DNA of 5,312 bases from the IMG/VR virus record IMGVR_UViG_2547132415_000018. One strand, 5' to 3'. Positions 125 to 5,312 of this stretch are shown piece after piece. The notes beneath the pieces are model-generated. The model was not told where the DNA came from, did not search any database, and saw only the letters and a list, made by a program, of their open reading frames with translations. Position 1 is the first letter of the stretch, and every line of letters starts with the position of its first letter. Source of the DNA: a virus (taxonomy: Duplodnaviria > Heunggongvirae > Uroviricota > Caudoviricetes). A program made the position numbers and the translations under genes.

Positions 125-144
125 TCATTTTCACGGAGGTTGCT

Positions 145-2286
145 ATGTCAACCGGATTACGTTTCACACTTGAAGTGGACGGCCTGCCACCGGACGCGTT
201 TGCGGTGGTTTCCTTTCATCTCACCCAGTCACTCTCTTCGCTCTTTTCCCTCGATCTCTCTCTGGTCAGCCAGCAGTTTCTCTCCCTTGAATTTGCGCAG
301 GTGCTGGACAAAATGGCCTACCTGACGGTATGGCAGGGCGATGAAGTACAGCGCCGGGTGAAAGGCGTGGTGACCTGGTTTGAACTCGGGGAGAACGACA
401 AAAACCAGATGCTGTACAGCATGAAGGTGCACCCGCCGCTGTGGCGTGCCGGTCTGCGCCAGAACTTCCGTATCTTCCAGAACGAGGACATCAAAAGCAT
501 CCTCGGCACGATGTTGCAGGAAAACGGGGTGACCGAATGGAGTCCGCTGTTCAGCGAGCCGCATCCTTCCCGTGAGTTTTGTGTCCAGTACGGTGAGACT
601 GATTACGATTTCCTGTGCCGGATGGCGGCGGAGGAAGGCATCTTCTTTTATGAGGAGCATGCTTACAAAAGTACCGACCAGAGCCTGGTGCTGTGCGACA
701 CAGTCCGCCATCTGCCCGAATCTTTTGAAATCCCATGGAACCCGAACACCCGTACCGAGGTGAGCACCCTCTGCATCAGCCAGTTCCGCTACAGCGCACA
801 AATCCGCCCTTCTTCCGTGGTGACCAAAGACTACACCTTTAAACGCCCCGGCTGGGCCGGACGTTTTGAACAGGAAGGCCAGCACCAGGACTACCAGCGC
901 ACGCAGTATGAAGTGTATGACTACCCCGGACGTTTCAAGGGTGCCCACGGGCAGAACTTTGCCCGCTGGCAGATGGACGGCTGGCGAAACAATGCAGAAA
1001 CCGCGCGGGGAATGAGCCGCTCGCCGGAGATATGGCCGGGACGGCGAATTGTGCTGACGGGGCATCCGCAGGCGAACCTGAACCGGGAATGGCAGGTGGT
1101 GGCAAGTGAACTGCACGGCGAGCAGCCGCAGGCGGTGCCGGGACGCAGGGGTTCAGGAACCACGCTGGATAACCATTTTGCGGTAATACCGGCAGACAGA
1201 ACATGGCGACCACAGCCGTTGCTGAAACCGCTGGTGGACGGCCCGCAGAGCGCCGTCGTGACGGGACCGGCAGGCGAGGAAATCTTCTGTGATGAACATG
1301 GCCGCGTGCGGGTGAAATTTAACTGGGACCGTTATAACCCGTCAAACCAGGACAGTTCATGCTGGATCCGTGTGGCACAGGCGTGGGCAGGCACCGGCTT
1401 TGGTAACCTGGCGATACCGCGTGTGGGTCAGGAGGTGATTGTGGACTTCCTCAACGGCGACCCGGACCAGCCGATCATTATGGGGCGTACCTACCACCAG
1501 GAAAACCGCACCCCCGGCAGCCTGCCGGGGACGAAGACGCAGATGACGATCCGCTCGAAAACCTATAAGGGCAGCGGGTTTAATGAACTGAAGTTTGACG
1601 ATGCGACAGGGAAAGAACAGGTCTACATCCACGCGCAGAAGAACATGAACACCGAGGTGCTGAATAACCGCACCACTGATGTGATAAACAACCATGCCGA
1701 AAAAATAGGTAACAACCAGGCGATCACCGTTACCAATAACCAGATCCAGAACATTGGCGTTAATCAGATACAGACGGTTGGTGTCAACCAGGTGGAAACG
1801 GTGGGCAGTAACCAGATTATCAAAGTGGGATCAAACCAGGTTGAAAAGGTGGGGATCATTCGTGCGCTGACGGTGGGTGTGGCTTACCAGACGACGGTAG
1901 GCGGCATTATGAATACCTCGGTGGCGTTGTTGCAGTCCTCACAGGTAGGGCTGCATAAATCACTGATGGTGGGAATGGGCTACAGCGTCAATGTGGGGAA
2001 TAACGTCACCTTCTCGGTGGGCAAGACAATGAAGGAAAACACCGGACAAACAGCAGTTTATTCTGCCGGTGAGCATCTTGAACTCTGCTGTGGTAAGGCA
2101 AGGCTGGTGCTGACGAAGGACGGAAGCATATTTCTCAATGGTACGCACATTCATCTGGAAGGGGAGTCGGATGTGAACGGTGATGCGCCAGTGATTAACT
2201 GGAACTGTGGTGCCACACAACCTGTACCGGATGCGCCTGTGCCGAAAGATTTACCCCCCGGAATGCCGGATATGCGGCAATTTTGA
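145..2286 (+). CDS. vgrG: Type VI secretion system spike/tip protein VgrG (713 aa)
   Basis: ORF 109..2286 from the supplied track. I prefer the internal ATG at 145 (MSTGLRFTLEVDGL...) because GGAGG lies 5 nt upstream, whereas the 109 start adds 12 hydrophobic residues with no ribosome-binding site. The translation has the typical VgrG layout: a gp27-like N-terminal region, a central region (VKFNWDRY...GQEVIVDFLNGDPDQPIIMGRTYH), and a gp5-like beta-helix made of VxxNQ octapeptide repeats. Confidence 0.92.
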   Translation: MSTGLRFTLEVDGLPPDAFAVVSFHLTQSLSSLFSLDLSLVSQQFLSLEFAQVLDKMAYLTVWQGDEVQRRVKGVVTWFELGENDKNQMLYSMKVHPPLWRAGLRQNFRIFQNEDIKSILGTMLQENGVTEWSPLFSEPHPSREFCVQYGETDYDFLCRMAAEEGIFFYEEHAYKSTDQSLVLCDTVRHLPESFEIPWNPNTRTEVSTLCISQFRYSAQIRPSSVVTKDYTFKRPGWAGRFEQEGQHQDYQRTQYEVYDYPGRFKGAHGQNFARWQMDGWRNNAETARGMSRSPEIWPGRRIVLTGHPQANLNREWQVVASELHGEQPQAVPGRRGSGTTLDNHFAVIPADRTWRPQPLLKPLVDGPQSAVVTGPAGEEIFCDEHGRVRVKFNWDRYNPSNQDSSCWIRVAQAWAGTGFGNLAIPRVGQEVIVDFLNGDPDQPIIMGRTYHQENRTPGSLPGTKTQMTIRSKTYKGSGFNELKFDDATGKEQVYIHAQKNMNTEVLNNRTTDVINNHAEKIGNNQAITVTNNQIQNIGVNQIQTVGVNQVETVGSNQIIKVGSNQVEKVGIIRALTVGVAYQTTVGGIMNTSVALLQSSQVGLHKSLMVGMGYSVNVGNNVTFSVGKTMKENTGQTAVYSAGEHLELCCGKARLVLTKDGSIFLNGTHIHLEGESDVNGDAPVINWNCGATQPVPDAPVPKDLPPGMPDMRQF
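1708..1851 (+). repeat. Six tandem 24-bp units encoding the VgrG beta-helix octapeptide repeats (GNNQAITV, TNNQIQNI, GVNQIQTV, GVNQVETV, GSNQIIKV, GSNQVEKV)
   Basis: The 8-codon periodicity with a conserved N-Q at positions 3-4 and V/I at position 8 is visible in the translation and as a recurring AAYCAG in the DNA. This is a coding-sequence repeat inside vgrG, not an independent element. Confidence 0.7.
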
Positions 2287-2361
2287 GTCAGGTGCAAAAA
2301 ATTAAAACGGAACTGGTGCAGTGACCAGATAAACCATATTAAAAGCAGAAGGAATTGATTC

Positions 2362-2640
2362 ATGGGCGGAAAACCGGCGGCGCGGCAGGGTGATATGACC
2401 CGCAAGGGACTGGATATTGTGCAGGGTTCAGCGGGGGTGCTGATAGGTGCGCCGACGGGAGTGGCCTGTTCGGTATGTCCGGGAGGGATTACCTATGCTA
2501 ACCCGGTGAACCCGCTGCTGGGTGCGAAGGTGCTACCGGGCGAGACGGACCTTGCGCTGCCCGGCCCGCTGCCGTTTATTCTTTCCCGCGCCTACAGCAG
2601 CTACCGGACCAGAACACCCGCGCCGGTGGGGGTGTTTGGT
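2362..2640 (+). other. PAAR domain coding region at the N-terminus of the Rhs protein (approximate extent)
   Basis: A PAAR motif at residues 5-8 (KPAARQGD) followed by a Gly/Cys-rich stretch ([14 protein letters not shown]). The domain boundary is estimated by eye, not computed. Confidence 0.5.
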
Positions 2641-4542
2641 CCCGGCTGGAAAGCGCCCTTCGATATCCGCTTACAGATACGCGATGAAGGCCTGATACTC
2701 AACGACAACGGCGGCAGGAGCATTCACTTTGAGCCGCTGTTTCCCGGCGAGATAAGCTACAGCCGCAGCGAGTCACTCTGGCTGGCGCGGGGCGGGGTGG
2801 CGGAGCAGCACAGTTCGCAGCCGCTAAGCGCACTCTGGCAGGTGCTGCCGGAAGATGTTCGCCTGAGTCCGCATGTGTACCTGGCGACAAACAGCCTTAA
2901 GAGGCCGTGGTGGATACTCAGCTGGCCGGAGCGGGTGCCGGGGGCGGACGAGGTGCTGCCGCCGGAGCCGCCCGCATACCGGGTGCTGACGGGCGTGGTG
3001 GACGGCTTCGGGCGGACGCTGACTTTCCACCGGGCGGCGGAGGGTGACGTGGCGGGCGCGGTGACGGGGGTGACGGACGGCGCGGGCCGCTGTTTTCACC
3101 TGGTGCTGACCACACAGGCGCAGCGGGCGGAAGCCTTCCGTAAACAGCGCGCCACGTCTTTATCTTCCCCTGCCGGTCCCCGTTCTGCTTCCTCTTCTTC
3201 TGCTTTCCCCGACACGCTGCCCGCCGGTACAGAATACGGTGCCGATAACGGTATCCGGCTGGAGGCGGTGTGGCTGACACACGACCCGGCATACCCGGAT
3301 GAACAGCCGACTGCGCCGCTGGCGCGCTACCTCTATGACCCGCTGGGCCGCCGGACGGGAAAACGGGTATGGCGGCGGGAGCGTGACCTGACGGGGTGGA
3401 TGTCGCTGTCGCGTAAACCGGAGGAGACCTGGTACGGGTGGGACGGTGACAGGCTGACCACTGTACAGACCCAACAGACAAGAATCCAGACGGTATACCA
3501 GCCGGGAAGCTTCACGCCGCTCCTGAGAATCGAAACAGAGAATGGCGAACAGGCGAAGGCGCGGCACCGGAGCCTAGCGGAGGTGTTGCAGGAGGACACG
3601 GGGGTGACGCTTCCGGCGGAGCTGGCGGTGATGCTGGGGAGGCTGGAGCGGGAACTGCGTGCGGGAGCGGTGAGTGCGGAGAGTGAGGCATGGCTTGCGC
3701 AGTGCGGGCTGACGGTGGAGCAGATGGAAAGCCAGATGGAGGCGGAATACATCCCGGAGCGGAGGCTGCATCTTTACCACTGTGACCACCGGGGACTGCC
3801 GCAGGCGCTCATCAGCCCGGAAGGGGAAACGGCGTGGTGCGGGGAGTATGACGAGTGGGGGAACCAGCTTAATGAGGAGAACCCGCATCACCTGTACCAG
3901 CCGTACCGTTTGCCGGGGCAGCAGTATGATGAGGAGTCGGGACTGTATTACAACCGTCACCGGTACTACGATCCGTTGCAGGGGCGGTATATCACCCAGG
4001 ATCCGATAGGGTTGAAGGGGGGAATAAATCTATACACGTATCCACTGGCACCAATACGTTACACTGATCCACTGGGGTTAGAACGAGTTATAAGTGTATA
4101 TGGGCCTCCCGCTCCAGACCGGGCAGGTGCTGAAACTCCTCTTGTTCTTACTGATATGACTGGAGGAGTGACTATTTATTATGATCCTGAAACAGGTGAT
4201 TCAATGACTTTTGATAGTAGCAATAGAATTGATCGTCGTTCTCAACGTGGTGCTGGTGATCCATATACAGGTGAAGTCGTTGGTTGTGAGACAAATGAAT
4301 CAGGAATATCGGCAGCATATGGCACAACGAAGATCTATACTACAGATACTAGAGCAAGATGGCTACATGGTGGGGGATCATCGTTGCGCGATCCTTATGC
4401 TCCTCGACAAGGCTGGAAACCAACTATGGGATGTACCCGTGCACAGAATGAAGATGTAGATGAGTTGTGTAAGAAAGTGACAAGTTGGATGTATTCGCAT
4501 CCTGGAGAGAGAATTAGATATGAACGTTTTAAGACACGTTAA
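2362..4542 (+). CDS. PAAR-domain Rhs-family polymorphic toxin, 726 aa, apparently lacking most of the YD-repeat shell through an in-frame internal deletion; carries a C-terminal toxin domain
   Basis: The ATG at 2362 is preceded by GAAGGAA (2348-2354). The N-terminus ([12 protein letters not shown]...[14 protein letters not shown]...[20 protein letters not shown]) is the PAAR-containing N-terminal region typical of E. coli RhsA-like proteins. The C-terminal part (YLYDPLGRR...[14 protein letters not shown]...[45 protein letters not shown]) is the conserved end of the Rhs core. Canonical Rhs proteins are about 1400 aa, so a 726-aa protein with both ends must be missing the shell. Confidence 0.88.
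3331..4080 (+). other. Retained C-terminal part of the Rhs core (Rhs repeat-associated core region) ending in PxxxxDPxGL
   Basis: The segment begins right after the inferred deletion junction ([14 protein letters not shown]). DPIGL is encoded at 4000-4014 and the terminal [10 protein letters not shown] ends at 4080, which is where Rhs C-terminal toxin domains normally begin. Confidence 0.6.
4081..4539 (+). other. C-terminal toxin domain of the Rhs protein (residues 574-726), candidate YkuD-like L,D-transpeptidase-fold peptidoglycan-targeting toxin
   Basis: The sequence becomes AT-rich immediately after the DPLGL demarcation. Residues 667-702 read WLHGGG-x18[14 protein letters not shown], which resembles the H-G...(S/T)-x-G-C-x-R-x-x-N-x-D catalytic signature of YkuD-type L,D-transpeptidases. 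The family assignment is by eye only. Confidence 0.45.
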
Positions 4543-4738
4543 TGCGATTAACATGGGAGTGTGCATTCTAATTTTGGTTATTGGATGTGCAAATGCTAAA
4601 GTTCTTAAACGATGTATATTACCCGCTCCTGATGGTGGCGTAGAAAAACTATCAAAACCCAACTTACATGGAGTAATTAAAAAAGTTGATTTGAACACAA
4701 ATGAAGCGGAAATTAAAATAAAAGAGGGGGGGCAGTGA
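4520..4738 (+). CDS. Small predicted lipoprotein (72 aa), candidate cognate immunity protein
   Basis: The ATG at 4520 overlaps the last 23 nt of the rhs gene and is preceded by GGAGAGAG (4504-4511). The N-terminus [23 protein letters not shown] has a charged n-region, a hydrophobic core and a lipobox-like VIGC. Its position directly downstream of an Rhs toxin domain is the classic immunity-gene position. The alternative start at ATG 4553 lacks a good ribosome-binding site. Confidence 0.5.
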
Positions 4739-4911
4739 GTTTTATTTTTAATGAGGAAACATTGTATTTTACTGTTTTTGGTGGGGATTTTATTATGGAT
4801 GATTTAAAAAAAGTAAAAAATACGGAAGCATGGGTATGGTATAAAAATTGCGATAGTAAAAATAAAAATGTGGCAGTTGAACTTCTTCAAATCTACGAAT
4901 TGCATCAATGA
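4735..4911 (+). CDS. Hypothetical small protein (58 aa from GTG 4735; 38 aa if started at ATG 4795)
   Basis: The ORF is not in the supplied track because it starts with GTG. That GTG overlaps the stop of the upstream ORF (GTGA) and is preceded by the strong purine-rich AGAGGGGGGG (4722-4732). The AT-rich composition and small size make this a weak call. Confidence 0.25.
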   Translation: MSFIFNEETLYFTVFGGDFIMDDLKKVKNTEAWVWYKNCDSKNKNVAVELLQIYELHQ

Positions 4912-4951
4912 AAAATATAGTTAAATAGAGAAGGTTATTAATAGCAGGAAA

Positions 4952-4976
4952 AGCATCACGTGATGCTGATTTTTTG
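4952..4976 (+). terminator. Candidate rho-independent terminator (palindrome AGCATCAC/GTGATGCT followed by a T6 run)
   Basis: A perfect 8+8 inverted repeat at 4952-4967 is followed by GA then TTTTTT (4970-4975), downstream of the toxin, immunity and small-ORF cluster. The very short loop is a caveat; it could instead be a protein-binding palindrome. Confidence 0.4.
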
Positions 4977-5312
4977 CACTAAATAATTCGCATTTTATGT
5001 TTAAAAATTGAGATATTCCTTATTACCTAAAGCTGTTTTTTATTGCTTATACATGATCAAATACTCCTTACATAATTAAGGAGAACAAAATGGAACTTAA
5101 AAAATTGATGGAGCATATTTCTATTATCCCCGATTACAGACAAGCCTGGAAAGTGGAACATAAATTATCGGATATTCTACTGTTGACTATTTGTGCCGTT
5201 ATTTCTGGTGCAGAAGGTTGGGAAGATATAGAGGATTTTGGGGAAACACATCTCGATTTTTTGAAGCAATATGGTGATTTTGAAAATGGCATTCCTGTTC
5301 ACGATACCATTG
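4977..5312 (+). mobile_element. Probable left part of an H-repeat (ISAs1-family) insertion element; left boundary not determined
   Basis: Inferred only from the transposase gene at 5090 onward. I could not identify the terminal inverted repeat, so the start coordinate is a placeholder somewhere between 4912 and 5089. Confidence 0.3.
5090..5312 (+). CDS. ISAs1-family transposase (H-repeat-associated protein), N-terminal 74 codons only; the gene continues past the window end
   Basis: The ATG at 5090 is preceded by AAGGAG (5078-5083). The translation [74 protein letters not shown] matches, from memory, the N-terminus of E. coli H-repeat-associated proteins (YhhI/YdcC-type). There is no stop before the window edge. 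Confidence 0.85.

Follow-up and report, generated by a model that had tools for sequence, protein, structure and literature searches.

Two described systems lie close to the subject of this study, the C-terminal tail of an Rhs protein encoded in a 5,312-nucleotide stretch of DNA (IMG/VR virus record IMGVR_UViG_2547132415_000018; the whole stretch is called the window below). One is the Tox-LD-peptidase class of Zhang et al. 2012 (Biol Direct 7:18; PMC3482391). In the part of that survey dealing with the class, it is described as having the residues H, S and C and the fold of PDB entry 1ZAT, as occurring in RHS-repeat polymorphic toxins linked to type II secretion systems, type VI secretion systems (T6SS) and TcdB/TcaC, and as having Imm16 and the "mostly alpha" Imm57 as immunity proteins; no individual E.coli genes are named there. 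Hydrolysis of peptidoglycan cross-links was proposed as its activity. The other is the Tlde1a/Tldi1 pair of Salmonella Typhimurium (PDB 7UMA, PMC9638812). Tlde1a, a characterized antibacterial T6SS effector with an L,D-transpeptidase-type fold and a Cys/His active site, acts both as L,D-carboxypeptidase and as D-amino-acid exchanger; besides the residues H121, S128 and C131 it has a capping subdomain. Its toxicity is exerted in the periplasm, where an immunity protein neutralises it.

As judged from open reading frames (ORFs), Pfam and NCBIfam profiles and annotated relatives, the window covers the effector end of an Escherichia coli T6SS locus. Like the Tox-LD-peptidases as characterized in that part of the survey, the Rhs protein combines an L,D-peptidase fold with conserved H, S/T and C residues at the C-terminus of an RHS carrier, a T6SS link and an adjacent immunity gene. 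The toxin class is thus not new, comparative genomics having recorded it in 2012, and the Prokaryotic Genome Annotation Pipeline (PGAP) already labels fragments of the E.coli protein "L,D-transpeptidase family protein". A preliminary description, made from the sequence alone, had suggested that the toxin and its neighbour would be a distinct toxin-immunity module. Against the 2012 class definition this does not hold for the toxin; it is the partner families that are apparently undescribed, the E.coli partner belonging to an exported family unlike the Imm16 and Imm57 named there. With Tlde1a/Tldi1 the locus shares the T6SS link, an L,D-transpeptidase-type fold, a Cys/His site and an exported partner.

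Fold and active site of the toxin tail

The toxin domain comprises residues 574-726 of the Rhs protein (153 amino acids) and is encoded by positions 4081-4539 of the window, followed by a stop codon at 4540-4542. (All features mentioned here are on the + strand.) The NCBIfam domain Rhs_assc_core ends at residue 573, the last residue of the DPLGL motif (569-573), and therefore 574 is a sensible toxin boundary; the tail stands directly behind this core end, as a C-terminal L,D-peptidase on an RHS carrier. Translation of 4081-4539 bore out the 153-residue tail of the preliminary description with its WLH669GGG and MGC691 segments. The putative catalytic residues are His669 (codon CAT, 4366-4368) in WLHGGG and Cys691 (codon TGT, 4432-4434) in T-M-G-C-T-R, and their codon positions confirmed the 22-residue spacing between them. 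The histidine and the catalytic [S/T]-H-G-C-x-R segment characteristic of the fold are represented by H669 and by T688-M-G-C691-T-R693.

The preliminary description had proposed a profile search and a structure prediction for residues 574-726. Both pointed to YkuD. When the tail alone was compared with Pfam YkuD (PF03734), it scored 25.1 bits (E=3e-5), above the cut-off of 23.4. The AlphaFold2 model of the tail, computed from 17 homologues, had a mean predicted local distance difference test (pLDDT) score of 80.8 and a predicted template modelling (pTM) score of 0.77. In a Foldseek search with this model the top six matches were all of YkuD fold, the first being an actinobacterial L,D-transpeptidase (Ldt) and the carboxypeptidases Csd6 and Bd1075, with modest E-values. 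The predicted three-dimensional structure thus falls within the YkuD/L,D-transpeptidase fold. A 35-member trimmed family profile aligned the Cys motif with SKGCIRMHNKDV of Bacillus subtilis YkuD, placing Cys691 on Cys139, which we take to be the catalytic residue of that enzyme (Bielnicki et al. 2006). In the AlphaFold2 model a long helix follows the cysteine and begins at the N-E-D-V segment. The same arrangement, a cysteine followed by a long helix, is found in YkuD enzymes. A search of the tail against PDB sequences with phmmer gave nothing significant. Chance occurrence of the His/Cys motif was considered and rejected in view of the profile match, the conservation and the relatives that keep the motif. 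Taken together, the profile match, the model and family conservation support assignment of the tail to the YkuD fold, as had been proposed.

The best structural matches are housekeeping YkuD-fold enzymes, among them B.subtilis YkuD, Enterococcus faecium Ldtfm, LdtMt2, E.coli YcbB, Csd6/Pgp2 and DpaA. The toxin shares with them the G-C-x-R-x-x-N-x-D-[VI] motif at the start of the helix. It differs from them in carrying T-x-G-C for S-H-G-C and in the invariant residues of the family-specific motifs D-x-R-x-R-W-x-H-G-G-G and R-Q-G-W. Moreover, the E.coli toxin has neither a signal peptide of its own nor a LysM or peptidoglycan-binding domain; unlike the housekeeping enzymes it travels on an Rhs/T6SS carrier and has an inhibitor gene as its partner.

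The toxin family in other bacteria

When 1.84 billion representative proteins were searched for the family, the matches at E<=1e-30 formed 81 clusters (50% identity); at E<=1e-10 there were 238. The total of 37,901 matches is unusable as a toxin count, being inflated by Rhs cores because some 60 columns of the first profile (alignment A1) belonged to the end of the Rhs core; the count at E<=1e-30, a motif check and the trimmed alignment A3 were used instead. The same core-end columns caused the matches of profile A1 to Rhs and Tc proteins in the PDB, and for this purpose too A1 was replaced by A3.

The pattern H-[GA]-G-G-x(10-34)-G-C-[TS]-R was kept in 141 of the 172 relatives retrieved, with His-to-Cys spacings of 19-33. 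Pfam YkuD matched 23 of 35 diverse family members (best E=8.5e-8). The histidine and the cysteine are invariant or nearly so in the two alignments A1 and A3: His669 is invariant in both and Cys691 in A3, where the other invariant positions fall in D-x-R-x-R-(W)-x-H-G-G-G, Q, T-x-G-C-T-R and N.

In a genome scan 38 toxin loci were found in Proteobacteria, Acidobacteriota, Verrucomicrobiota, Desulfobacterota and Cloacimonadota, including Variovorax, Acidovorax, Curvibacter, Stenotrophomonas, Nitrosomonas and Desulfovibrionaceae, among others. The domain stands at the C-terminus of DUF6531-Rhs, PASTA-Rhs and peptidase-C39-Rhs proteins, of teneurin-like YD shells and of Ig-repeat proteins. In the relatives it ends Rhs/YD proteins of 1000-2100 residues, and in three of them (P0093, P0097 and P0099) it is placed after LysM domains.

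Four relatives of about 190 residues (P0016, P0022, P0025 and P0028) stand alone and consist of a Sec-type signal peptide, the last ~40 residues of the Rhs core and the toxin domain. The gene for P0028, found on metagenome contigs (L005 2940-5674, L006 and L007), overlaps an upstream transglutaminase-like gene by 4 nucleotides and is followed on all three by an exported partner of family A (see below) and a small membrane protein. The stand-alone form resembles a variant of the module that is secreted or endogenous to the periplasm.

Partner families and the partner gene of the window

All-against-all BLASTP of the genes directly downstream of the toxin in 37 loci yielded two families; the gap to the toxin gene is mostly -14 to +31 nucleotides. 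Family A (27 loci) has about 170-220 residues, one member having 142, and a C-x-G-x-x-C-L motif. The 10 members of family B, among them the E.coli protein, have about 126-176 residues; this family is characterized by two conserved cysteines and by the conserved motifs C-x-L-P-x-P-D, F-G-G and W-x-W (alignment A4). The two cysteines suggest a disulfide. A partner gene is adjacent to the toxin in nearly all loci, but in families other than Imm16 and Imm57. None of the 11 partner proteins scanned matched a Pfam immunity family, and the E.coli partner gave only a sub-threshold match to DUF4367. Families A and B appear to be undescribed. A word-indexed protein search returned only close relatives of the E.coli partner, and the distant ones were found through genomic neighbourhoods.

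A hydrophobic N-terminal segment is present in 36 of the 37 partners, compared with 29% of the other ORFs of 200-900 amino acids in the same loci (binomial p about 1e-18, the other ORFs being a crude control). These apparently exported partners, together with the relatives fused to LysM and PASTA domains, point to a target in the cell envelope, most plausibly peptidoglycan. In this indirect way they support the periplasmic action on peptidoglycan that had been suggested.

In the window the partner gene is split into two ORFs. The first (4520-4738) overlaps the 3' end of the toxin gene by 23 nucleotides and encodes a 72-residue 5' fragment with a signal peptide and a lipobox-like LVIGC; the second (4735-4911) encodes 58 residues comprising the conserved FGG...WxW...C half of family B. 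The intact gene, as found in ST540, B18271 and NCTC86, encodes 130 amino acids. The split arises because a G8 tract of the intact alleles has lost one base, giving G7 at 4726-4732 (alignment A2) and a frameshift within the conserved partner domain. Of the "small lipoprotein partner" proposed earlier, the exported partner next to the toxin was found, whereas the ORF at 4520-4738 taken for it is one half of a frameshifted 130-residue gene. That the E.coli partner is a lipoprotein is, by its sequence, plausible but unproven, because besides a PROSITE-like lipobox with Cys23 it has a signal-peptidase-I-like site (A-N-A|K), and because six of the ten family-B members lack the lipobox. The AlphaFold2 model of the partner, based on a shallow alignment, had a pLDDT of 54.8 and only tentatively indicates an all-beta protein.

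Among 5426 complete E.coli genomes screened, 1015 (about one in five) carry the partner gene. The exact 82-mer with G8 was present in 718 of these carriers and the exact 81-mer with G7 in 184. The G7 tract could represent inherited decay, slippage-based switching or a homopolymer sequencing error.

The Rhs carrier and its surroundings

The Rhs gene (2362-4542) encodes a PAAR-like/DUF6531-Rhs protein of 726 residues, toxin tail included (DUF6531, 1.3e-18; RHS, 2.6e-14). Both ends of the carrier are present, the N-terminal PAAR-like/DUF6531 region and the C-terminal DPxGL core end. The Rhs-associated core domain (3847-4080, residues 496-573; TIGR03696, E=3.3e-23) ends in DPLGL (4066-4080). By analogy with the Rhs family, this motif is presumed to be the site of autoproteolytic release.

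The YD-repeat shell between these ends is incomplete. When the window was compared with the NCTC86 allele by blastn, positions 134-3330 matched L004 1758-4966 and positions 3325-5023 matched L004 7001-8699, which places the junction of an in-frame deletion of ~2.05 kb at 3325-3330. Protein alignment agreed: relative to the 1410-residue NCTC86 protein, residues ~326-1005 (~680 amino acids) are missing. The NCBIfam profile RHS_core scored 1135 bits on the window protein, in two stretches and below the cut-off of 2000, and 2488 bits in one stretch on the NCTC86 protein. At least 80% of the window Rhs gene was covered in one place in only 4 of the 5426 genomes, which are those sharing the deletion, and the segment comprising toxin, partner and ISAs1 was mostly covered in 898. 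The tail proper has remained conserved: four strains were compared, and their toxin sequences differ at 0-1 amino acids.

Directly upstream lies the gene of the VgrG spike protein (145-2286; Pfam Phage_GPD 1.9e-74, Gp5_trimer_C and Phage_base_V), annotated as "T6SS tip protein VgrG" in strain AR_0061. The longest ORF begins at 109, and 145 is the start chosen by PGAP. In AR_0061 the Rhs gene is 100% identical to that of the window, and window positions 3900-5312 are 99.8% identical. In related genomes the locus is flanked by the T6SS structural genes tssB, tssC, hcp and tssM and by yafV-ivy-fadE. In AR_0061 the hcp gene upstream of the matching vgrG (L002 1518-2036) has an internal stop and a pseudogene annotation, suggesting that the secretion locus of this strain is inactive as a whole.

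G+C content is 0.62-0.71 in the Rhs core, about 0.45 in the toxin tail and 0.30 in the downstream gene (window 3950-5000). Such a stepwise drop between core and tip is the classic pattern of Rhs genes and typical of tips that are exchanged horizontally. The toxin-partner pair is directly followed, in the manner of classical Rhs elements, by the gene of an ISAs1/ISEc1 (H-repeat) transposase, which starts with ATG at 5090 and continues beyond the end of the window (5090-5312; identified from the AR_0061 annotation, L002 7191-8327).

The same Rhs gene is broken in other ways elsewhere, by an IS3 insertion in one strain (L001 4618-5780) and by a deletion fusing a truncated tssM to rhs in another (L003 1162-6643). 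As the disruptions differ between strains, the locus has apparently been inactivated by several different events.

Discussion

We consider it likely that residues 574-726 are a Cys/His enzyme of YkuD fold belonging to the widespread Rhs/polymorphic-toxin family Tox-LD-peptidase and that, as proposed for that family, it acts on peptidoglycan. In intact loci such as that of E.coli NCTC86 the toxin would be enclosed in the Rhs shell and carried on VgrG by the N-terminal PAAR-like region. The T6SS would fire it into the periplasm of a neighbouring cell, where the toxin, released after DPLGL, would attack an L,D bond of the stem peptides, presumably that between meso-diaminopimelic acid at position 3 and D-Ala at position 4 (mDAP3-D-Ala4), by Cys691 activated by His669. 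The most likely effect would be that the terminal D-Ala is trimmed or swapped as by Tlde1, so that cross-linking is starved and the wall weakened. Siblings would owe their protection to the adjacent 130-residue exported protein, through its binding of the toxin in the periplasm.

Several observations weigh against this interpretation. The whole 726-residue protein scored 21.8 bits with Pfam YkuD, just under the cut-off of 23.4, and profile matches to solved YkuD proteins were marginal (E=0.28), a comparison with DpaA by hhalign giving E=0.13. In the T-x-G-C that replaces the canonical S-H-G-C the second histidine is absent. The signal peptides of the partners were called by a hydropathy heuristic rather than a dedicated predictor, and in some assemblies the G7 tract is possibly a homopolymer sequencing error. 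Enzymes with this fold comprise not only carboxypeptidases but also transpeptidases that form cross-links and DpaA, the amidase of the Lpp-peptidoglycan bond. According to a recent survey, the toxins joined to Rhs repeats usually act in the cytoplasm (PMC12994826). Finally, our literature search found no biochemical or genetic evidence for, and no experimental study of, Rhs-borne L,D-peptidase toxins; a preprint on a Stenotrophomonas Rhs protein (Tse6) describes no L,D-peptidase.

The breadth of the fold bears on the reaction. With the same fold and the same periplasmic site, the toxin might instead cut 3-3 cross-links or, like DpaA/LdtF, the bond between Lpp and peptidoglycan, with detachment of the outer membrane. 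This seems unlikely: the hhalign match to E.coli DpaA was weak, even though the GC motif was aligned, no DpaA-specific feature was found, and the best Foldseek matches are carboxypeptidases.

The toxin could also owe its chemistry to descent: a genuine Tlde1 effector, joined to an Rhs carrier, would have retained the dual L,D-carboxypeptidase and D-amino-acid exchange activity. The likeness to Tlde1 noted in the preliminary description is real as far as the common fold and the T6SS link go, with VgrG encoded upstream and the partner exported as judged by its sequence. The Tlde1 family is, moreover, reportedly diverse in sequence, with subfamilies a, b and c and a capping insert in Tlde1a only (PMC9638812). 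Yet in a search of PDB sequences at E<=10 the profile of the Rhs-borne family did not match Tlde1a, the spacing between His and Cys is different, and neither a detectable sequence relationship nor the closest structural one links the domain to Tlde1a. In the strict sense the domain is not a Tlde1 relative, and common descent with Tlde1 is distinctly improbable.

A thiol peptidase of repurposed YkuD fold with a cytoplasmic target, which would suit the usual company of Rhs repeats, is very hard to reconcile with the export-like N-terminal segments in 36 of the 37 loci, with the possible disulfide of family B and with the fusion of relatives to the peptidoglycan-binding LysM and PASTA domains.

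A bolder proposal can be formulated, which we regard as doubtful. The HGGG...GCTR family would be a recruitment of the YkuD fold independent of Tlde1, with a chemistry of its own (for example cleavage of 3-3 or Lpp bonds or attachment of a foreign nucleophile) and with two undescribed families of exported inhibitors, and the G8 tract would possibly be a genuine on/off switch instead of a sign of decay or of a sequencing error. If this were true, the exported partner families could serve as natural inhibitors of L,D-transpeptidases.

What the window holds is, above all, a degraded copy of the locus. With a shell lacking ~680 residues, a frameshifted partner gene and an hcp pseudogene in the genome carrying the identical Rhs gene, this copy is probably a decaying relic and most likely non-functional as a weapon. 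A toxin that acts in the periplasm and has no signal peptide would be harmless to its producer once secretion is off, so that the immunity gene could decay as well.

Characterization of an intact allele, such as that of NCTC86, would show whether Rhs cages deliver wall enzymes that act in the periplasm. It would also define the reaction of a second lineage of L,D-transpeptidase-fold toxins beside Tlde1, and would yield small protein inhibitors of a fold that is relevant to beta-lactam-insensitive cross-linking.

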